Assembly: GCA_963693365.1 (NCBI GenBank)
Contig: CAVNZM010000004.1
Coordinates: forward strand, 13,253,088 to 13,317,087
DNA from: Amoebidium appalachense
Lineage: Eukaryota; Protista; Ichthyosporea
Length of the DNA stretch: 64,000 bases
Direction: 5' to 3'
Numbering within the stretch: the first letter of the stretch is position 1; each line of letters starts with the position of its first letter. Below, one piece after another: positions 1,451 through 62,571 of this stretch. The position numbers were made by a program, and so were the translations under genes. The notes below the pieces were generated by a model, which saw only the letters and a list, made by a program, of their open reading frames with translations, had not been told where the DNA came from and searched no databases.

Positions 1451-3675
1451 CCTCTCTCTCCCTCTCTCTCTCTCTCTTGCTCCCCCACCCCCCCTCCCCC
1501 CTCTCTCCCCTTCTCACACTCTTCCCCCCCCCCCCCCCCCCCCCCCCCTTTTTTTTTTCTATGCCTGCAGATCTGTACTTAACTGTGCGCAAGAATGGGC
1601 AATCAAGTTACTACGAAGAATTACATGTGTCACATCACCCAGCCGTCTTTTTGCATTCTTGCATTCTGTTGCTCGCTGCATGGGCCTTCACGACTGGGAT
1701 TCTCTTGTTGACCTGGACCATGTTTGCTTCGAATGTCCACTCTGCCTCCTGGGGTTTTTCTTTTTTTTTTTTTTGGGGGGGGGGGGGGGGGGGGAGAACA
1801 TCATAACATCATTCCGGCCACACCAGTAACACTTCTTTTTGTCCTGCCAGAAAATCTGCTTCCTTCCTGTCATTGTTTTCTCGGCGCACCATGGTCTACG
1901 TATCTGCTTCAGAGAATGGCTCGGCTACTGGTAAGTGAAGGGTGTTCGAAACTTACCTGGGAAGTGGCATGTCTAATGGTGGCCAGGGGTTGGGGGGTTG
2001 GGGGGGGGGGGGGGGTCTTCATCGGGAAGGGGTGGTGGTGTGTGCGTGTGTGTGTGTGGGGGGGGGGGGGGGGGGGGGGGGAGGGGGGGGCGGGGGGATT
2101 GTGGGAGGGGGGGGGGGGGGGTGGGGGGGGGGGGGGGGTGGGTGGGGGGGGATGAAGGGATAGACCAGTACTGGGTTGGTCAAGGGCCAAAGAATGGGGA
2201 GGAAGGGGTAATATCGGGTGCTTACGGGTGAGTTCCGATTGTATCTGGGATAAAATTGTGCTCCTCTTCCCTACCGAATAAACATCGGAAATGAAAACAC
2301 GTCAATATTCATCCCCCCCCCTCCCTCCCTCCCACCCCCCACCTACCCACCCACCCACCCACCCTCACCCCGTCCCGGGCTCGTTCACTCGTTGACATTC
2401 ATCCCGGTTTGAGATTCACAATGATTCATCCCTGTGATTTGACATCAACGGTAAGGACCACTATCCTATGGTAAGAAGTAGACACAAATACGATTTCTTT
2501 CACTAGTGTGCATCCAGTGCTTGGTGCCAGACATAACCCAGGGAATGATGCAGGCCAGGTGCCGATTACGTGCGATTTGAGGAGTGATACGATCACGGTG
2601 CCCTGCAAGGGAATGAAGGAGGTGCCAGCCCCCCCCCCCCCCCCCCCCCCCCCCCCCCATGCGGCACGTTACATGCCGGCGTAACATAACTCGGACTATG
2701 GATTTGGCTTTTTTCAAGCCCAAAGCAATGGGTGATACCATATTTCCGGCTTACATCCGGGGGCATAGCTTTCCGTTCGAAGACGTTAAAGTTCCGCCCT
2801 AGTAAGCGTGTTACCACCCTGCGACGTGGGTCAAATCTCATATTTTCCCCTCTGATTGCGAATTCTGCGGCCTTCGGGACTTAATTCTCTTCAGCTGGTG
2901 TAGTATGTTAGCCAGGGAAGTATCGACTTAGGTAGCGACGGGGGAGCTTCCTAGAAGCCCCGTCTCCTGAGTTCCTATCTATATTTTTCTTGCTTCTGCT
3001 TACTGCTGCAACTTTAACCCCCGGCCTTTCCCACTGCCCTTGCCTGCATAAGCAACCCTGCTCGTCTCTGATCAAGACGGGTGACCTACCCATGTTCAAG
3101 TGAAAACAGTATCTGAGTTGGGTTTTGTTAACGAGGTGAATAGGTCGAAACTCGGGTACTGTGGATGGCGTGGGCCCCCCTTGAGGATGGGCTCTGCTTA
3201 TTATGCATAGTCTTTTGTATGGCTTGCATTCTGCATCGTGTTATCCGTTTGTTCTTGTGTACTTCGTACTTTTTGACGCATTCAAACCCCCCCCCCCCCC
3301 CCCCTCCTCCTCCTCCTCCTTCCCCCCTTCTTCCCCCACTCATCCTCTGACCTTCCCCGTCCCCCTTCCCTTCTTCGGTCCTTCACTTTTGAAAGAGAAA
3401 ACGAAATGAAAAGGAATATCTTTCATGCGAACGCCTCGGAAGGGGCAGAGAAAGTATTCAGTCTGTCAGGGGTAGGTTGTATCTAATGGTACCCAGCCCA
3501 TGGAATTACATCACCTGATTCCCAGCCAAGCATACTCCACTGCGATCCAGCAACCCACTCCTTTTCTTCCACCCTACTGCCTCACTCCACCGGCGCACCA
3601 AGCTTTAACCTGTTGTAGTGGGATCGAATGCATGTGAAACCTGTTCCATGTACACTTCCTGACCCCCCCCCCCCC

Positions 3676-3716
<41 letters not shown>

Positions 3717-4968
3717 TGGTTGACCCACCCAAGTTCAGTTGATGCTGCTGTCTGAGTTGGAGCGTCGTATATACGCGGGCTAAGGGGTCGAAACTCAGAC
3801 GCAATTGATGACTTGGGCCCTCCCTGAGGATGGGCTCTGCTTATGACGCATACTGTGCGCATGGCTGATGCTGCATACTTGAATGTTTGCCTTTGCATGT
3901 GTCCTGCACCATGCTTCTCATCGTGTATGCGTACTTCGTACTGTGTTCCGCATTCAAAACCCCCCCCCCCCCCCAACTACACATACAGGCCATGATGGCT
4001 GCCCCTGTGGGTGACGATGTCTTTGGGGAGGACCCAACCATCAACGAGTTGGAAAGGTGTGCTCACACCCGATCCCCCCCCCCCCCCCCCCCCCCCCCTT
4101 CGCTTGCGGAAACAAACCCGTGCTGCAAACGACCTCTAGCATTGAGAGACTCTTGAGTACATGCAACAGATCCCTAACACCATTTTTGTTAATTCTTGAA
4201 TTTTATTTTCTTCTTCTATTTCGTTTTTGCACATGGGTGGAAGGCAGGGAGAGGGGGGGGTGGGGGGTGGGGGGTGGGGGGAGGGGTGGAAGGGAGGGGG
4301 ATGAAAAGGTGCAGTCGGAAAAGAGGAGGGAGGGGAGGTAACGGTGATACTAACCGTCAGAGCAGATATGTGGCTGAGCTTGCAGGGAAGGAGGCCGGGC
4401 TGTTTGTGGCCACCGGCACAATGTCCAACCAGCTGGCCATACGCGCAAAGATAGGGGTAGGCCACCCACTAGTAGTGTACATGGCATGGTGCATGAAATG
4501 GGTGGGTTTTGAAAACACGAATAGTACAAAGAGTGGGGGAAGAGATGGTGTGATCTGTGAAGGTTGCAGGAGGTAAGAGGAGGAGAATTCGCTCAGATCG
4601 GAGGCTGCACAAGAAAAGGTTTGATCGAGAGTGGGGGGGGGGACTTGTCCGGGTGAGGACTAATGGTGGGTGCAAACATAGTTTGGGATTGGGGTTGGCT
4701 GTTAGAGTTGCAGGGCTAGTGGCAAACCGGTAGGTAGGTATGTGTGTGTGTGTGTGCGGTGGTGCTGTGGTGCTGGTGGTGGTGGTGGTGGTGGTGGTGG
4801 GGGGGGGGGGGGGGGAGGGGGGGGGGGGGGGGGGGGGAGAGGGGGGGGGGGGGGGGTGGATCGGAGGGTGTTATGGGAGTTAATGCTTGGCCCCAGGGAG
4901 GAGAAAGTGCGCATTTGGGTGGGTGGGTGGTGGTGTGTGTGTTTTTTTTTTTTTTTTGGTGGTGGGGG

Positions 4969-5412: not shown

Positions 5413-5986
5413 AAAAAAAAAAAAAAAAAGATCGCCAGTATCTTCTCTCAATCGCCCCCCCAAGCAACCCTGCTCGTCTCTGATCAAGACGGGTGACCTA
5501 CTCATGTTCAAGTGAAACAGTATCTGAGTTGGGTTTCGTTAACGAGGGGAATAGGTCGAAACTCGGGTACTGTGGATGACGTGGGCCCCCCCTGAGGATG
5601 GGCTCTGCTTATTATGCATACTCTTTATGTATGGCTTGCATTCTGCATCGTGTTATCCGTTTGTTCTTGTGTACTTCGTACTTTTTGACGCATTCAAAAC
5701 CCCCCCCCCCCCCCCCCCCCCCCCTATTTCCTCTCCTTCACCCGTTCTCCCCCCCCCCCCCCCTCCCCCCTTCCCCCCTCCCCGTCCACCCACACAAGTA
5801 GCCTCACTATTTTGTTAATAATTAATCTCCTGCACCCATACCTCAACTTAGGTTCATCAACGCTGCCCTCGCTCACGGATCACTTGTACACATCAATACA
5901 CCACACGGACACACACACGGACACACACAAACGTTTCTTTCTCTCTCCCTCCCTCCCTCTCCCTCTCGCCCTCTCTCTCTCTCTCT

Positions 5987-13964: not shown

Positions 13965-14331
13965 ACATCTGCTTAGCTAGGGAATTCTATTCGCATTCCG
14001 TTAACCTACGTTGCTGCCCTCCTGTGTTCAGTGTACATACGTGTGTAATGGTGTTATTTTCTCTGTCGTTCTCCTTTACGAGGGGTATTTAGTATAAAAT
14101 GATTGATTATTCAGGAGTTAAGAAACAACACCCTGTACTTGCACGTAGCTACACAAGCAAAAAGCATGGTCTGCCTTTTCGCTTTAGCCTGACAAGCTAC
14201 ACCCCTTACGAATCCTTTCATAGTGCACACCTTACTCTTGCCACCAAAGCAGTCAGCTAACGTCAAAAAGAACCTACACCGAAACTTTCCCTAGAAACAT
14301 TAAACTCTAAGGCACACATACATTATCAACC

Positions 14332-16384: not shown

Positions 16385-16476
<92 letters not shown>

Positions 16477-18741
16477 CACACACAAACGCTCACTCACTCA
16501 CGCGGACACGTCTCTCCGACACATATGCACCCAAAATATGCACCCACCCCCAACACCACACACCCACGCACCACCCATGCATCCATCCCGGGGCGACAAG
16601 CAAACAAAGCACATGAACACTATGGCCGTCTGAGGGACGCCCCCTTCGCAGAGGGTGAAAGTGATAGTAAGAAAAACTACAGTATTGATCTGCACTACCA
16701 GTGTGTGTGCACTTCAAGCGAGCTCGACTGACCAGCGGGGGCCAAACATGTCAGCCTTACAGCTGGCACGTGCTCTAGCTTGTATGTACGATAAATCGGC
16801 GCTAGCTGGCTGAGATGCAGTTCACCTATTGTAAATTAATAAAAAGTGTTTCTAAAAAAAAATCGGTCTCTACGTGCGTTTTGTGCCCCTATTCAGCTAT
16901 GCCTTTATTAAGAGTACAAAAGTTTCGCACCCTAGCTGTGTGATGTCATCTCGCCGGGTAGCTCTATTTTTCAAGGTAGGTGAGTCACGTGTTCAGCCGC
17001 TCTCCGTATCGTCCGCGTCTCCTTGAAAAATAAGAGCTACCTTCTGGGTAGCAGGCCTTACGGTACTGTATACGTACGCCCCGCTCCGCGCCAGATATCC
17101 CCGGCCACGGCCCACGGCCGTCTCGAAAAATCTATTTTTATCTTTCTATTTTTAGTAATACTTTTACATTTTGGTAGTATCGATATCCCCTGCGCAGCGG
17201 GGTCACGTGAATGTGATAATACCTTGGAATGAAGGGAATGCAAGGTATGTGCCGTTTTATCCCGGCAAGTTAACGTTCACTGTACGTGACTGGCAAGTCC
17301 CGCCCTGAGACTGACGGCGGACTCGGTGGCCGTTGTCGAGCTTCCGTGTCACTCGTGCCTACACATCATGCATGACTAGTAATTATTAGTTGGCACTAAT
17401 AGTTACTGTGCATCCAACCAATATTATTATTACGCACACTATACTTGTAGTGGCACAGTACTCCAGCTGCTACTGAGGTGAGGTCAATACTCAAACAACA
17501 AAGTATGCACACATGCATGCTTCTTGGAAGTTGGAGCTCCTCAGACAGAAGCCCGTTTACACTTGCCTACTAGGTTAGTCTCAAGTCGACATTTTTTTTT
17601 GTAGATATACACGTTATATTAGGTACCAGACATATCGATATTTGATTTGCAGCGTATGTATGGTATAGATGCAATTGAGCCATATGCATCAGTGAGCATG
17701 CACCAGCAAACAACCGTAAATCTGCAAGCCACGACAGTGCCAAAAAATAAACAACAAGTGTAACGCAAAAGAGAGTCGATGCCAGTTTAAAAGCGAGCAA
17801 ATTGAGTCTTATCAAATCAACTACTATGTGTGCCGGATAATTGTAGACTGCTTTCAATCTCAGACTCGAGACTACTCATAATACCACAATAAGTATACAT
17901 ACCTGTCAATATCTATCTATACGAAAGCCAAAAAAAACCTATGCGAAGGTTGCTGTGTTCTGTGAGTATTGGTTCAATGTGACATAGGGGAGGCTCGAGG
18001 ACTGGAAAACAAAATCCTTTCCAGCCGTCCACGAGTTTGTTCCAGGAAACAGCAAAATGAAGTAAATCAAAGGTGAGGCCTTAGTCCAATTATTGTGCTC
18101 CCATTTTTACACCCTGGCTTTCCTTTCTCTCCTCGATTTTTCACAGTGTCTCTTCTAGGTATTCTGTCCACGTGCACTGTTTTGAACGCTTTTATTTGGG
18201 GCCAGTTTACGGACGTCCCAACACATTAGGCCACCCGCATTCATCCCCTTTTACACAGAAGCAAATTTTTGAAACACACCCATGCTCAAAATAGTGTCAC
18301 ATGATACACACACTGTGCGTGCACACGCACATGCCCCCACACTGTTACAAACGTGTACACATCACGCGTGTGCATGCCTTCACAAATTCACACATACACA
18401 CGTGCATGCACACGGACATGCTCATCCTACAGCCACACACGCACGCACACACAGAGAGAGGGGGGGGGGGGGATGGGAGAGAGAGGGGGGGGGGGGGGGT
18501 GGGGGGGGGGGGGGGAAACCCACACAATCACACATTTTGAACCACACAAACATGTACCTGCACACAACACAGGTGGGCCACACGCATATGCTGGCGAGAC
18601 CGTCACACCCTGATACACAAGCGCACATGTTGTCCATCATGACACAGATATACCCACACTCCGTACGGGCGTGCACACACACAGACACACACAAACACAC
18701 AAACACATGCACACACACACACATACACACACACACACACT

Positions 18742-18826
<85 letters not shown>

Positions 18827-18993
18827 ACACACACACACATCGTGACACGTATGCGCGCACACACGCGCGCGCACACACACCACACACACACACAACCACG
18901 GGGTGCAGGCAGGCACACTTGCAGAATCACAGGCATACATGAACACTGTTGCACTCAATACACATGTTCAGCACAGATACACCAGCCACATGC

Positions 18994-19054
<61 letters not shown>

Positions 19055-19357
19055 CACGCACGCTTAATCGTGCGTGTGCACGCATATACATGCACGCCTG
19101 CACTCCTACACACCCACACACACACACACTTCATGGAGTCCCTCACTTGCGTCCACGCTCTTGCTCACATTCTTATTATCACACAGACACGTACATGCAC
19201 ACACACTCACTCACTCACACACTCACACACACTCACACACACACACCTACTCACACCACACACACACACACAATCACCTACGCGCACACACCAACAACCA
19301 TACACCCATCAGCAACAGTACCTTGGGGAAGAAACAATCATCACTCCCATTGGCAGC

Positions 19358-31281
<11,924 letters not shown>

Positions 31282-32280: not shown

Positions 32281-33133
32281 AGAGGGAGAGAGAGGGAGAG
32301 AGAGAGAGAGAGAGAGAAACCCGATACCCACATTCGTGATCCAGAACTGAAAAGGCAGGAAACAGAAAGCTATCTTTTTTTGTTTGTTTGGGGGGGGGGG
32401 GGGGGGGCTCCAACTCACACGTTTTCTCCCGATCAAGTCGGTTCCTCTCTATGGTCTATCCGCCAATATACCCTGACACTTTGCCATAAGCTTTTTCATT
32501 TTCCCTCCACGTGCCACCAAACCGTATACATAATACCCGATTCAGGCGAATAGTTGACATGAAGATCCTCTATCTGTGTTGAAACAGTGCCAGCCCCCAC
32601 CAATTCCCATGCATGCGTTCCGGTGTTCTAATCCAATCAAATCCGTTCACTGCAGGCCTTACATAGCAAGTGGAATGCAAGGCCCAACGAACCATGGGCA
32701 CAGATGAGCTGCCATCCACGTGTGATTGGAGGATTACCGGGGATGAACACCTTCTATTGTATTTCAACAAGACTTCAAAGTGCATATTGCGTTGTGTATG
32801 TATGGCTAACACTTTTAGCACCACAACATCAACTTAGTAAGAAAAACATTCACAATGTGGCACAGGTTGAACCCAGCAAACAGTAGATTAAACACAGGCA
32901 CAAAAGGCATGTGGTAGTAGAAGTTTTATGAAGGAGGGCTTATAGACAGCAACCACACACACCGGCAAGTTACCGTACACGCATACGTGCACACACACAC
33001 ACGCATGTCAAATACACATCAAGACTGTTACAGCTGTACAGCACACACAGTCCTTCATGTGCACATACCTTTACCAAGAATGTGTATACATGCACACACG
33101 CCCACTGCCTCACAACCACACAACTGCACGCAG

Positions 33134-33169
<36 letters not shown>

Positions 33170-33184
33170 TCACACTCACACACT

Positions 33185-33215
<31 letters not shown>

Positions 33216-33216
33216 A

Positions 33217-33254
<38 letters not shown>

Positions 33255-33320
33255 CATGCACACGTGCACCCACACTCGCGCACACCCACACACCAACACA
33301 CACACACACACACCCACGCC

Positions 33321-33408
<88 letters not shown>

Positions 33409-34479
33409 AAACTCGCGTGCGCAAACACACACACACACATACACACAAGCGCTCACACACACACACATACACACACACAGCGCACAACACTCAGGCACGT
33501 CAGACACACAAACGTAACGGACAACACAGCTAGTTCTGAAACACGCAAACACAAAGGCAAACAAACCGTGTGTGAACACAACCCACCTAGCCACGCGCAA
33601 CACCACCAAACATGCACGTGGGCTCTGCCAAACTTAGCAGGAAATAGTATTAGCCTAATCCCCCGAAACCCCTGTGAGTACTTTGGTCCGACCCATAGTG
33701 GATCATATTTGTATGGCCAAAATGCCGTCACACACACACATTACCGTACGTATGTTAGCTATGTAGGACAATATGCATCGAATGTGCAGCGCCAGGCAGC
33801 GCGTGAATAAATGAAAGTACAAGTCATTACGTGTCGCGGTGCGGGGGTGACCAAAAAATCTTGCCCAGAAGCCATGTGCTATTCCTTGTGTTCGTACTGG
33901 CAGCCTATAACAGGCTGTGCCCATTTGCCAGCCTATCCGGGATAGTCGAGATCACTCCTTCCATCCTATCCGGGTGCTAGTATTAATATTGAGAGCGCAA
34001 GTATGCAAGTTGGGGTATAATATGTGACGCTGTGGCACGAATAACAGCATTAATGCCATTTGCTTTTGCGTGTTTATATAATATTACTAAGTTTGAATTG
34101 TTTTATTTAGGGCTAAAGGTACCTTGCAACCCAACACACTTGTATAGGCCAGATGCCATCTTATAAATTAAATAGATCGACCCAGCCCAGCAAGTCGAAG
34201 GCCCTTAAGGTGCAATAGACCGCCTCGGCCTACTCTGATTTTCCAAAAACGGATATTTACTTGAAACCCTTAATGTGAGCAACTATTCTGGCAAGTTGAA
34301 GCACCCCCACTGTCGTCGTATTTATTACCATACCAGGCTGTTGGCCTATCGATGATCATACCCTGTCTGTGTGAATGCCCTTAGACTTTTTGTAGTGTTC
34401 TTGTTAAATTAGCAGCGTGTTCTGAGCAACCAAAGAAAATAAACTCGCAGCCTTGCAGCCTGAGAGGGCAGGGGCCCTT

Positions 34480-38776: not shown

Positions 38777-39015
38777 GGGGGGGGGGGGGGGGGGAGAGAG
38801 AGAGAGGGAGAGAGAGAGAGGAGTGTGTGTGTATGTGTGTGTGTGTGTGAGTGTGTGTGTGTGTGTGAGCGACAGAGAGAGAGAGAGTTCGTATGGTTAA
38901 AGACACAAAACATGGACCTATGCATGTATAGGGCTATAACACAGGGATTGGGCAAATTAAATCCTAGTACACTTGGAAGAGAGTTAGGACACAGGCTACT
39001 GGTCTTGTAGAAAGC

Positions 39016-39375
39016 ATGTTGACTTCAAAGGTAGCGCTAGTCTCTGGTGGGAGCCGGGGTATAGGCCGGGCTACTGCTGTTATGTGTGCAAGGGAGGGCG
39101 CCAGAGTGGCAGGTGCGTATGTGGAAGCGCAGCATAGTACCCCTAACACCTCGAAACAATTTAAAACCCCAAGTTTCTGAAGATCTTGGCATACAGATAT
39201 TCATACTTGAGGGACGGACACATGTACGGACACGCATTACCGTTATAACATATACATGCACACGTCACCACACAAGTTCAATAGTGACACAAGGTCTTAC
39301 AGACACACGCGGGAAGTACACCCATACATAACAGGCACCGGATATTTTTTTTCTCCGCCATTCAAAACCCCCTCC

Positions 39376-39411
<36 letters not shown>

Positions 39412-39559
39412 ACACCTCCCTTCTCGACGACCGCCTGCCATAACGGGTGGCCTTGGTCCCACGCAACACGGTAGCCCGTTCCTCATTCCTCCACAATGAC
39501 AACTCAAATGGAAAGGCTGAAACTTTACAACAGATATGCCAGACCAAAACAACAAGAGA

Positions 39560-39613
<54 letters not shown>

Positions 39614-41111
39614 TTCCCCCTCCCCCCCCCCCCCCCACACACAGAGACACACACACACACTCTCTCTCCCTCTCTCTCGTTCCCCCCCTGCACTGCCATC
39701 TACATCCGTACCTTGACAGCAACGCGTTTATCTACATCAACATAGCACATACCTCATCCCCGCCCCCCCCCCCCCGCCCCCCTCCCCCTCCCCCCGTCCT
39801 TCCCCCCTTCCCGCCGTCAATACTCCTACCCCTACCCTACCTCTACCCTATCAGAACACGTCTCTTGATGGCTCTTTTGTTTACATATGCATGAGTTTGT
39901 TTTTTCGAATGACACACATACAGCTCTGGCGCCTATGAACACGTTAAGTGCTAACCATTACTCTACTCCTCCGCCAGTGCTGGGTCGGAACGAGTCATTC
40001 CTCAACGAAGCCGTCTCGGAGCTGCACAGAGTGCATGGTGGGCCCACAGGACACCACCTAGCCGTGGTGTGTGACGTAGCAGACCCGATAGCCGTGAATG
40101 CTGCAGTGGAGGTGGGTGGCTGAGGCTGTGATTAAGGGGAAAAAGACGTTGGGGATAAGGGAACGAACCGACATATGCCTGTGAAAGGGTATTGTCCTTC
40201 CATTTTTTTTTCTTGTTTTTCTCTCTTTTCAATATTTGGAGGGGGGTGGGGGTGGGGGGGTTGGGGGGGAGGGGGGAGGGCGGAGGGATTACCCCCCCCC
40301 CCCCCCCCTTTTCCTTTTATGCGCTTAGCGTCTTGTGTACATGTTGAAAAGAAAGGGGGAGTCGGTTTACAGAGTCATGGACTATCGGGGGCCATGTGTA
40401 CCTGGGTGGTGAATATGACTGACATAGGGGGAGTGGCAGCAAGTGGTAGGCAGCATGGGCCCACCCACCGTGCTGGTCAATGCGGCAGGTCAGTAGCAGC
40501 CAAAGCACGTGCCTGCCTGCATGGACAAGTGTTGGCTAGCTTTGACTGTACAGGCACCAGGCACTATGGGCTTTCTTTCCTGCAACACAACCCCAGCCCC
40601 CCTTTTTGCCCTTGTCTGGCCGAAATCGAAGAAGTACGTAAGGCAGTTGCAATCCCCTTTCTTGGTAGACTGGTTGTGTGTGTGTCTGCTTGTGTGTTTT
40701 TTTTTTTTGGGGGGGGGGGGGGGGGACGGTGGGAAGGATGGGAGATGCCATGCCCACTGGTTTTTCAGCCGCTCACATATGAGTGATGCCTGTACCCACT
40801 AACCAGTTCATTGCAGGCATAGCCCGGGACAGTCTGCTGCTACGAGCAAAGGATAGCGACATCCAGCAGGTAGAAAATAAATGAAAACTACCCCCTCCCC
40901 CCCCCCCCCCAAACCCCCCTCTCCTCCTCCTCCCCCCTCCCCCCCCCCCCTCCCCGCCCGCCGCGCTCTTCCTCCTGTTATGAATCACGTTCCCTGTACA
41001 TTGTATATTAGTATATGGGTATTTAAACACCCAATGCCCCACATGTTGTGAGTCGCTCATTGCACTGCTGCTCATTTTTGTTCAGTGACCATTCCTCTCC
41101 TCAGAACCCCT

Positions 41112-41158
<47 letters not shown>

Positions 41159-43819
41159 GTGCCTGCGGGAAAAATAAAATAGAAAAGATACACACACACT
41201 AAAAAAGGAATGAACTAGCCTCATCCGCTCTCCCTCGATTTATCTTCATTGCAGACATGAACTCTATTCGTGTCACAGGCATAATTTAGCAGTGCTGCAT
41301 GGGATACTGAGGCATGGCAGCACACTGTGCACCAGCACACATGCATATCACTGATCAATGGGGTGGGGCCATGGCCCAAGCCAGCAACTGGGCACCAACC
41401 TGCTTGGCCCCATGTATTTGTGTAGGGCTGCCCTGCGTCCAATGATGAAGACCCACGGTATTCCCCCCCCCCCCCCCCCCCCCCCCCCTCCCCCCCCCCC
41501 CCCCCCCCCTTTTTTTTTTCTGCATCGAAGAAGAACGTGAATGGAAAGGTTCCTGTCTGGGGCCCTTCTTAAGCAGCGGTATTTGGTGTGTGTCTGTGTA
41601 CGGTACATGCCAATTGCGCACCCTTGAGATTTTTTGGAGTTTTTTTTCTTTTTTTCTCGTTATTTTTACTGGTTGGTGCCTTTTCTTTCTTTTTCAGAAA
41701 TTTGGATTTTAAAAATTTGGGTGTCCCCCCTCCCCTCCTCCCCCCCCCCCCCCCTCCTCCCCCTCCCGGAGGGGGTGAGACGGAGGGGAGGGTGAGGGTC
41801 GGTGGGTGTGGGGTGGGTGGGTGGGTGGTGGGTGGGCGGGCGGGGATGTGAGGGTGTCGGTGGGTCGGTGGGGTGGGGAGGGAGGGAGAGAGAGGGGGGG
41901 GGGGGGGGGGGGGGGGGGGGCGGGCGGCTATGGAGAAGTGGATGCCTGGGGACGGCTATTTGCGGACTGCAAGTGAGGTTACATGGAACCGGCATACCGG
42001 AGGGTTCTTGTAAACCTCTAGTTCCACACCAGCCGATGTCGCTGTAGGCAAATCCCGCATTGCACCATGGCATTGCGTTGGGTTGTGCATGTGCCGCAGC
42101 CACTGCCTGACATCTTTGTGTGCACCAGAGGGCTGCATCGTCAACATCGGCAGTGTGGTGGGCCTGACAGGCAATGCAGGCCAGGCTGCCTACAGTGCTG
42201 CAAAGGCCGGCCTTGTGGGTATGTCTGTGTGAAGGTCTGGGTGTTCATGCTGCCTGTTTCTATGCATGGGTTCAGTTTCAGGAGTGCGCCGATTTTTTTG
42301 CCTGCCTGCCTGCCTGCCTGCCCGCCCGCCTATTTGCCTGCCAGCCACGTGCACTTCCTTATTTTATTTGTGTATGCCCTTTGTACTATATCTCCGCCTT
42401 CCCCCCCCCCCACACACACCCTCCCCTCCTCCCGCCTCCCTCCCCCTTCTCCTGTCTCCAGAGCTGTTGCCGGCTTTTGGTAGCTGTTGCATGGATCATG
42501 AGATATCATAATTCTTGTAATTTTTAAAGCAACCACCACCCGCTTCTTCCATTTTAGCCCAGATCGAGGTTGATCCGATTGAGGATTTTAGATTGCCCTC
42601 TTTCAGCCTGTGAAATTCTCGATTCTATATCTAGCCATCGAGGACTCAGATTTGGCGGGAAAAATTGCCCATTGAATGACGTCACACCCTCGACGGCTTA
42701 ATGGGATCGAGAAATTCACACGTCGCGCAAGGGCAATCTAAAACCCTTGATCGGGTCAACCTCGATCACGGCTATTATGGAAGAAGCGGTGGTTGCTTTT
42801 AAGGAGAGCAGACAAGTGCTGACTGGTTGGCCCCTACGTGGGGGCTGCAGGGTTCAGCAAGACGCTGGCCAAGGAGGTGGGCAGCAGAGGCATTAGGGTC
42901 AACGTGGTGGCCCCGGGGTTCATCGATACAGACATGACCAAAGGCAAGCACTTACCATTGAAACCTCTACCCCCCCCCCCCCCCCCCCCCCCCCCCATTC
43001 TGTTTCTCTGGTTTTCGTGGGCGAGGTGAATGGGTCGAAAGTCGGGTACTGGGCATATGTGTGGTTTGCACACTTCATTGTGTTATCCGTTATAAATATG
43101 TACTTCGTACTATATAACACATTCATCCCCTCCCCCTTCCCCCCCCCCCCCCCTCCCCCCCCCCCCCCCCCTCTTTTTCCTTCTCACTCCCTTCAATTCC
43201 TCCCCCCCCCCCCCCCCCCCCTCCCCCCCCCTTTATCCCCCCTACCGAAGCACGTGCATACATAGCCAAGACAGCACCAGAAGGACATGTATTATATTAG
43301 TGAGATGCATATTTAATGGATGTTTCTAACCTGCCGGGTGGCAGGTATGGGAGAGGAGGCAAGGCAAGCCATTCTTGAGCGGTTGATACTGAAGAGGTTT
43401 GGGGAGCCCCAAGATGTGGTGGAGGCGGTGAGGTTTCTGCTGGCCTGCCAGTACGTCACAGGCCAGGTGCTGCCCTCACTCATCCCTTGGCTTTTTAGCT
43501 ATCTGCCATTCAAACACCCCTCCCTCCCCCTTTTCTTCCACTACATCATTGTCTGGTCTCTTGCGCTTCCTACAAGCACCCTCATCACAACCCATCCTCC
43601 GCATTCAAGAGGGTGGGCTGTGCCTATTATGCATACTGTTTGTGGGTTTGCACTCTGCAATATGCTGTCCGCTAGAAGTGCGTACTTCTTACTCTATAAC
43701 ACATTCTAAACCCCCCTCCCCTCCCCCCTCATACCCCGGGCACATTGGCAAAAGAAGACACACTGATAAACTTGTGCCACACACAGGTGATTGTGGTTGA
43801 CGGCGGCATGTCCCTATGA
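39016..43819 (+). CDS. Short-chain dehydrogenase, 3-oxoacyl-ACP reductase (CBR4/FabG-like)
   Basis: Exons 39016-39112 (VSGGSRGIG), 39978-40111 (CDVAD), 40440-40488 (LVNAAG), 40817-40869 (IARDSLLL), 41385-41457 (TNLLGP), 42129-42218 (IVNIGSVVG...YSAAKAG, YxxxK), 42851-42943 ([16 protein letters not shown] donor), 43345-43466 (RFGEPQDV...YVTGQ), 43787-43819 ([10 protein letters not shown]-stop). Confidence 0.93.
42524..42802. mobile_element. Foldback MITE with TTAA ends (Kolobok-like termini)
   Basis: ttaaagcaaccacc..cgcttcttcca..tagcc..gatcgaggttgatccgat..ttttagattgccct mirrored at the right end; imperfect inverted arms of about 120 bp. Confidence 0.87.
43021..43126 (+). mobile_element. Diverged, internally deleted copy of the poly(C)-tailed family
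   Basis: cgaggtgaatgggtcgaaagtcgggtactg...gtgttatccg...gtacttcgtac...cattca then a C-run. Confidence 0.7.
43591..43710 (+). mobile_element. Diverged 3' fragment of the poly(C)-tailed family
   Basis: gagggtgggctgtgcctattatgcatact...gtacttc...cattctaaa(C)n matches the 3' half of subfamily A. Confidence 0.65.
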
Positions 43820-44594
43820 TGTGGGCCAACAAGAAAACGGACATGTGCTCCTACCCTTGCGTTTTGCGGGAAGAGCTTCTTACTGTATGGGCTGCATACT
43901 TGCATGATACTTTTCTTGTGTGATCCAAGTTTATAGTGCAAACGTAGAAAATCTCTAATGAACATAGGTCATAGCGCTGTGGGCAGCGTGTGCGTGTGTC
44001 CGTGTGCGTGTGCGTGCATGCATGCGTGTGTTCGTGCTTGCGTGCGTGGAAATAGTGTGCAGCATACTGTACCTGAAATTGGACATGAATTTCTTGTGTA
44101 TGTTTGGTTACACTTGCCTGCAGCTAGAGGTTTTTTCCTTATTGGAATATGCTTTTAAACGGTATTGGGTGTCAGGAGCCAATTTGGAGATAGGTGAAAC
44201 ACGTGTACTAATCTGAAGTTCGTTGTATATGACGAAGGTCGGGTTGATTTATCTTTGCACACATGCATTCAAGATTCCCCACATGTACACGGGCTGGTCT
44301 GGGCACTTGCATTAGTGGGACGTCGACAACGTTCTATTTATGTCTCGGGGTCAGCCTTGTTGAAAGATAGTGCGGCTTGTGGCTGGCCCGGCGGTGCAGC
44401 TACAAACACGAAATAAAAAATAAAATTTATCGGCACGTATACAGTTACGTTACATACGTTGCACGTGCATACACGTGTATACCACAGCGCTACAGCAGAT
44501 AGGTTCCACTGCAATTTGGGCTGTACACAAGGCTGGTATACGTACATGCACAAGTGTATATACCCTCGGGACACCGTAGTGCTGTACATGTGGG

Positions 44595-45214: not shown

Positions 45215-62571
<17,357 letters not shown>

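Follow-up and report, generated by a model that had tools for sequence, protein, structure and literature searches.

Hammerhead ribozymes order their conserved strands cyclically as NUH, CUGANGA and GAAA. A dispersed repeat in the 64-kb stretch of Amoebidium appalachense DNA analyzed here (the window) carries these words in the order NUH, GAAA, CUGANGA, and a first-pass annotation read them as a new pseudoknotted or obligate-dimer hammerhead. Does the repeat encode a hammerhead, and how would it be wired? From the modeled structure, we think it fairly probable that the 3' region of this high-copy, probably Penelope-like repeat folds into a pseudoknotted hammerhead with its core opened at the A9-G10.1 step. 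The strand order that drew attention is not new, since it is that of the published type SGC; the opened core looks new.

The repeat and its insertions

The window is eukaryotic DNA rich in introns and in runs of C and G. Compared with itself, it shows eight copies of the repeat, all in + orientation: five have the complete motif and three are partial (Table 1). A 3' signature is common to all eight copies, each of which runs into a C-tract, and the 5' ends vary. In contigs from two public runs, summed depth is ~10^5 to 10^6 over two copies versus 12–33 over the unique intron between them (2950–3990) and drops towards 2660, that is, towards the 5' end of the element; the ~10^4-fold excess over the adjacent unique intron is not a copy number, and the runs are possibly the source of the window. 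We guess both runs to be RNA, and the element contigs in them are no evidence on expression.

Dispersed high-copy insertion, 5' truncation and (C)n targets tentatively place the repeat with the Naiad/Chlamys elements. In the parts of Craig 2021 used here (PMC8557442), Chlamys-type elements show 5' truncation, (C)n targeting and a fixed 3' end; the repeat resembles Naiad and Chlamys in truncation and high copy number, Chlamys in its (C)n targets, and both in that its 3' region has the core words of a hammerhead but no canonical fold. Unlike the Naiad and Chlamys elements described, it gave no reverse transcriptase or endonuclease match: neither a reverse transcriptase nor a GIY-YIG domain was found among the 180 partly overlapping frames scanned (of 518 in the window), and protein searches with the short upstream frames of the longest copy (2660–2884) returned no match. 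None of the copies in the window is full-length. A by-eye resemblance of one upstream frame to a Naiad reverse transcriptase tail was not counted, as those searches were empty. The Chlamys-1_pPol 3' end does not match the repeat, and two 11-nt words of the repeat are absent from the Craig 2021 files used, where line breaks could mask a match. The repeat is likely a very abundant mobile element of Naiad/Chlamys, Penelope-like type, a class assigned from element traits and not from a reverse transcriptase match. The mobile-element setting claimed in the annotation is borne out to this extent: the hammerhead-like fold is part of a high-copy, 5'-truncated repeat.

Several features of the insertions are worth recording. 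The window holds 103 C-runs of at least 12 nt and 52 G-runs, and this supply of C-run targets only partly explains the + strand bias of the eight copies (~0.04, simple odds). The copies at 48951 and 3716, which belong to different subfamilies, start at the same point within the P5 hairpin, possibly a stall point of reverse transcription. In one partial copy, similarity to the element starts a few bases at most from where the cut is predicted (42998–43015; a single case). Aligned public-run contigs show no cluster of junctions at that site, and copies span it. One such contig has short telomere-like repeats joined within the element at 3148–3158.

Five of the eight copies lie inside introns of two recognizable + strand genes. 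The host of the 5462 copy is identified as threonine-aldolase-like by Pfam Beta_elim_lyase matches in two exon frames. A short-chain dehydrogenase gene (38968–43820, +) holds two partial copies in successive introns. Elsewhere in the window, a single open frame of 442 aa at 14311–15639 matches Pfam CHGN (chondroitin GalNAc-transferase-like); database searches with this frame and with a glycosyltransferase exon as queries found no relatives. Self-comparison also returned other dispersed repeats (20–256 / 59719–59953; 16387–16579 / 33093–33252 / 59815–59943) and a further dispersed family (18781–19308 / 30236–30503 / 33137–33475).

Table 1. Elements of the motif in the 5462 copy, and copies of the repeat in the window. 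Helix assignments are predicted; energies are in kcal/mol.
Feature	Position	Strand	Remarks
P0 5' strand (closing helix)	5462–5470	+	partner 5600–5610; duplex −7.5; outer 5 pairs with probability 0.79–0.99 (nested ensemble)
P5 hairpin	5472–5494	+	abuts G10.1; −8.9; present in whole-copy minimum free energy (MFE) fold
Stem II 5' strand (IIa), GACCUA	5495–5500	+	G10.1 = 5495; upstream of cleavage block; partner UAGGUC 5552–5557
P4 5' strand (P4a)	5501–5508	+	8/8 pairs in all 5 copies
Block S	5517–5533	+	stem III 5' strand 5517–5529; GUU triplet; H17 = U5530; stem I 5' strand GGG 5531–5533
Stem I-to-II linker	5534–5551	+	weak, partly palindromic hairpin −1.7; homodimer −15.8
Block G	5552–5573	+	stem II 3' strand 5552–5557 (C11.1 = 5557); GAAA 5558–5561; stem III 3' strand to 5573
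P4 3' strand (P4b)	5578–5585	+	pairs with 5501–5508
Stem I 3' strand and CUGAGGA	5589–5598	+	CCC 5589–5591, adjoining CUGAGGA 5592–5598 (C3 = 5592, A9 = 5598)
P0 3' strand (P0b)	5600–5610	+	one U after A9
3' tail of 5462 copy	5611–5699	+	small hairpin 5671–5681; fixed 3' end into poly-C
A-type copy, longest	2660–3286	+	627 nt; motif 3050–3199; carries C3U
B-type copy	3716–3959	+	begins 6 nt before stem IIa
A-type copy	5462–5699	+	5'-truncated; between C-runs; sense intron of threonine-aldolase-like gene
Partial copy, internal deletion	42998–43126	+	linker, IIb and GAAA retained; without block C
Partial diverged copy	43600–43710	+	degenerate core and 3' tail
B-type copy	46468–46737	+	IIa 46501; H17 46537 (U); GAAA 46569; core 46603; degenerate 5' flank
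A-type copy	48951–49160	+	begins 6 nt before stem IIa; without P0a and most of P5
Partial copy, ribozyme region deleted	60522–60708	+	5' flank fused to 3' tail

A conserved motif in two subfamilies

From 5' to 3', the motif runs P0a, P5 hairpin, IIa, P4a, IIIa-GUU-Ia, linker, IIb-GAAA-IIIb, P4b, Ib-CUGAGGA, P0b. Every strand named in the annotation was found in place in the A and B copies, and the claim that both subfamilies keep the same pairings held for stems I–III across the five copies, with changes on both sides of helices. Three helices, P4, P5 and P0, extend the set that the annotation had described. Measured from the junction, helix lengths are 6 pairs for stem II (one copy has 5), 13 (A) or 9 (B) for stem III and 8 for P4 in every copy; stem I is as short as the annotation had cautioned, with 3 pairs in A and 4 in B, the third being G-C in A and A-U in B. 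All five copies have C11.1-GAAA between stems II and III, an A15.1-U16.1 pair and the NUH triplet (GUU). The box adjoining stem I reads CUGAGGA in four copies and UUGAGGA in one, and C is the majority letter in public-run contigs. The outer flank is more limited, being degenerate in the B copy at 46468 and truncated inside P5 in two copies; B-type contigs from the public runs also bear the A-type P0a/P5 flank (loose ends at 3082).

A descriptor of the strand order (IIa, then IIIa-U-H-Ia, then IIb-GAAA-IIIb, then Ib-CUGANGA) matched exactly five sites in the window, whereas 100 windows given a local dinucleotide shuffle averaged 0. The descriptor was derived from the five copies, so the five matches are partly circular and the controls supply the false-positive rate. 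It also matched none of 313 loci among those listed from phage scans (79 and at least 120) and metagenome scans (0 and 114), which were chosen for core words and serve as controls only. Across the five copies, 24 named pairs were formed in 99.2% of 120 cells, versus 20–50% when the registers were slid by 1–3 columns. Four of the counted pairs differ between A and B in both partners, namely two in stem II, one in P4 (of 7 counted) and one in stem III; stem I, counted by junction register, also shows a both-sided change. Compensatory change is thus present in stems I, II and III, within two subfamilies only. In alignment shuffles, two measures were matched in 0/500 controls, and the pair-count measure was not exceeded, with 55/500. 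The covariation, which comes from two subfamilies only, is suggestive and not statistical proof. Variants at 5% frequency at 3087 and 3142 seem compensatory, but they are unlinked and maybe come from B-type contigs; they were not counted.

The subfamilies differ at about one third of the columns (85/128 invariant), yet all unpaired core letters are identical; 5592–5612, which takes in the core and its next 14 nt, is identical at 21/21 positions between A and B, versus 54–64% identity in loops and tail. Judged from its sequence, the motif is a real, conserved RNA element.

Wiring of the core and competing readings

The annotation's argument that this order is not a circular permutation holds for hammerhead types I–III, and the canonical permutation occurs in no copy; a scan of the window for canonical orders gave one unrelated weak site. 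Reading A as a canonical type I through GAAAC-UCGG-GUA was rejected: the triplet is missing from B at that point, and stem II is not preceded by any CUGANGA. By eye, the P4-III internal loop could be a kink-turn in B but not in A, and that reading was dropped. At gathering threshold, Rfam gave no matches over the window. The comparison with Rfam hammerhead and HDV models that the annotation had proposed gave four weak matches at E≤10, among them a partial Hammerhead_1 match in Block G below the cut-off (E=3, 14 bits versus 34), and no HDV family.

As to topology, the analysis supports the annotation's pseudoknotted, hammerhead-like fold but not the novelty of the order. Type SGC (HRIMA-1 and variants) has the order NUH, GAAA, CUGANGA, an additional helix that connects stems I and II on their far sides, and cleavage validated with compensatory mutants, at rates of 0.007–0.19 per minute (Eckert 2023; PMC10085705, in the passages used here, as below). 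Cleavage in vitro is established for both SGC and CSG; SGC sequences came from metatranscriptomes, with none in the genome of a known organism, CSG was published from two metagenomic sequences, and the non-circular wirings lie outside the genomes of known organisms save for one doubtful bacterial case (PMC10085705). The term 'SGC' is absent from the passages used of a 2026 retrozyme preprint. Our motif shares with SGC the S-G-C block order, a linker from stem I to stem II, and a helix tying the far sides of these stems. That helix is P4, formed by the strands that follow IIa and precede Ib; we infer that it corresponds to the helix of stem I-II interaction in SGC and CSG hammerheads.

The motif departs from SGC in the core strand. 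In SGC, CUGANGA leads straight into stem II and the linker is ~3 nt (PMC10085705), whereas in the Amoebidium repeat A9 leads into the closing helix, the linker is 18–22 nt, and the stem II 5' strand lies at the 5' end of the motif; the repeat is also high-copy and eukaryotic, where SGC is metatranscriptomic. The annotation's caveat, that the covarying stem II strand does not directly adjoin CUGAGGA, proves to be the point that looks new: the best partner of IIb lies ~100 nt upstream of CUGAGGA. Block C (Ib-CUGANGA-IIa) is not intact, and CUGANGA does not continue into a stem II 5' strand with 2 nt or fewer inserted; a descriptor requiring a stem II of at least 4 bp matches only the two B copies, through a 2-nt insertion. 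By comparison, Perreault 2011 (in part) reports core insertions of only 1–2 nt, and known alignments in Eckert 2023 have none longer than 1–2 nt beside CUGAnGA (PMC10085705). Like CSG, the motif would have the same pseudoknotted cycle opened elsewhere; unlike the motif, CSG keeps block C intact and has no P0/P5 junction. The pseudoknot-containing, pistol-like hammerhead likewise stabilizes its core with an extra pseudoknot helix. Its pseudoknot is made by a stem II loop whose stem consists of A9-G12 and G10.1-C11.1, and its core strand is not described as opened in the passages used (Zhan 2024; PMC11300833). The type I hammerheads of Penelope-like elements and retrozymes (RF00163) share the core letters, and those of Penelope-like elements the 3' position, with the motif; type I is a nested three-way junction. 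We found no description of a core-opened hammerhead in the literature searched, mostly open access. Strictly defined, the motif falls outside types I–III and SGC on one defining feature, and its hammerhead function is predicted.

In the model that we favor, the wiring would be a circular permutation of the SGC/CSG pseudoknotted cycle (S-G-P4b-C-P4a) that places both ends of the RNA within block C. P0 would stack on P5, and the two would meet stem II and the A9-G12 pair in a four-way junction that could keep normal core geometry without the A9-G10.1 bond, while P4 would clamp stems I and II. The predicted cut is after U5530 (U46537 in B). Cleavage would serve to process element transcripts that are tandem or arise by read-through, a role also proposed for the hammerheads of other Penelope-like elements, and gating by a competing fold or an element protein could allow copies to be tolerated in sense introns.

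Could stem II form in the usual place? If the strand after CUGAGGA were IIa, the motif would be an ordinary type SGC with upstream GACCUA as a competitor or off-switch. The S-G-C order fits such a reading, B copies can pair 6 nt with the downstream strand after a 2-nt insertion, all five copies pair 2 after the extra U, and two copies have no P0a or P5. However, the downstream strand is invariant while IIb changes, whereas the upstream strand changes with IIb, and the downstream duplex is weaker (−2.2/−5.4 versus −6.7/−8.7 kcal/mol upstream). The octopus and EuTe Naiads described below have no downstream partner by eye, in the ends shown. We consider placement of stem II downstream improbable. 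Less credible still is the intermolecular part of the annotation's proposal, in which two RNAs would swap blocks through a duplex of the palindromic linker and cleave only as dimers. Minimal Penelope hammerheads can act as dimers, a palindrome sits at the same place in both subfamilies, as the annotation had noticed, and in the 5462 copy the linker homodimer is far stronger than its hairpin (Table 1). These palindromes are weak, however: the share of shuffles doing as well is 0.016 in the 5462 copy and 0.06–0.58 in the other four, so that only one of five linkers beats 95% of shuffles. Stems II and III reach full length in the monomer, and the relatives read by eye have linkers of 1–5 nt, with no palindrome in the ends shown. 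An obligate dimer is accordingly very unlikely. The remaining suggestion, an HDV-like ribozyme or the head of a tRNA-derived SINE, draws on GCUAA before the helix in B and on words at about 5519–5532 and 5553–5563 that we take to be A-box and B-box look-alikes. The strand order misfits HDV, with no P3/L3/P1 in HDV order by inspection and no nested double pseudoknot (P1-P2-P3-P1.1-P4, with J4/2 C). The J4/2 C is present in B only (GCUAA versus GGGAA/GUGAA in A), and neither HDV nor a tRNA family is among the four weak Rfam matches. ARAGORN found no tRNA genes, and at least 440 nt of the repeat precede the box-like words, which are not a 5' head. We give this suggestion hardly any weight.

A further reading keeps the hammerhead ancestry and drops the catalysis: a dead or vestigial hammerhead, retained for its structure, in which nested hairpin III and P4 would signal to the element's reverse transcriptase. 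The nested hairpin dominates predicted folds; the GUU triplet, the short stem I and the copies in sense introns would suit a dead ribozyme; and the Poseidon hammerhead cut only with the element protein, with cleavage unneeded for insertion in vitro (Frangieh 2024; PMC11167929, in the parts used here). Against this stand the unpaired core letters, identical across subfamilies that are otherwise so diverged, and the co-variation of pseudoknot stems I and II. We judge a relic unlikely, though the least so of these alternatives.

Predicted folding bears on how fast a core-opened hammerhead would cut. Whole copies have unremarkable plain folding z-scores (−1.6 to +0.5), as expected if two stems form pseudoknots. 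The nested part of the active fold lies 7.4 kcal/mol above an MFE fold that buries CUGAGGA, before pseudoknot stems I and II are counted. In this competing fold, the strand 5472–5478 leaves the P5 hairpin and pairs over the core; the P5 3' arm (5479–5494) resembles the core and the sequence following it (5592–5603), which is the source of the off-fold, and the likeness may record an old duplication. U17 pairs with A14 with probability 0.65–0.91 and could extend stem III. Given the GUU triplet, the stem I of 3–4 bp, the pairing of U17 and the competing fold, cleavage is likely to be slow or gated, and gating would agree with the presence of copies across the cut site and in sense introns.

Relatives and implications

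Relatives were sought by eye in the Craig 2021 supplement (PMC8557442), which shows ~350–420 nt for each of 29 Naiad consensus 3' ends and 14 Chlamys ends. Three of the 29 Naiad ends, two from octopus and Naiad_EuTe, appear to have the core-opened order, with a closing helix directly after A9 and a hairpin abutting G10.1; their helix sequences are unrelated and their linkers are 1–3 nt. These three surfaced through core word searches and are not a random sample. Six nematode Naiad ends (three Nbra, Hcon, Hpol and Asuum) read by eye as intact type CSG with an outer helix, the Hpol triplet being GUU. In the other 20 Naiad ends and all 14 Chlamys ends, no motif was recognized within the sequence shown. 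In the parts used here, Craig 2021 labels eight elements 'HHR_half_core', including Naiad_Ovul, Naiad-3_Nbra and Naiad_Hpol (PMC8557442).

Taken together with the window copies, these ends point to a broader proposal, on which we would lay even odds: that Naiad/Chlamys elements carry pseudoknotted hammerheads, of type CSG in nematodes and, here and in octopus and clam shrimp, of an active seventh wiring with a four-way junction at A9-G10.1 and an on/off switch in host introns. Eckert 2023 counted six possible wirings on the assumption that block C is uninterrupted (PMC10085705, in the passages used), and a natural core-opened form, if true, would break that assumption. The link between A9 and G10.1 would then be replaceable by a helical junction and offer a new insertion point for engineered switches. 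If true, the finding would also hint that non-circular forms interconvert by circular permutation in tandem repeats, and it would answer the puzzle, posed by Craig 2021, that a canonical hammerhead is missing from the proliferating Naiad and Chlamys elements.
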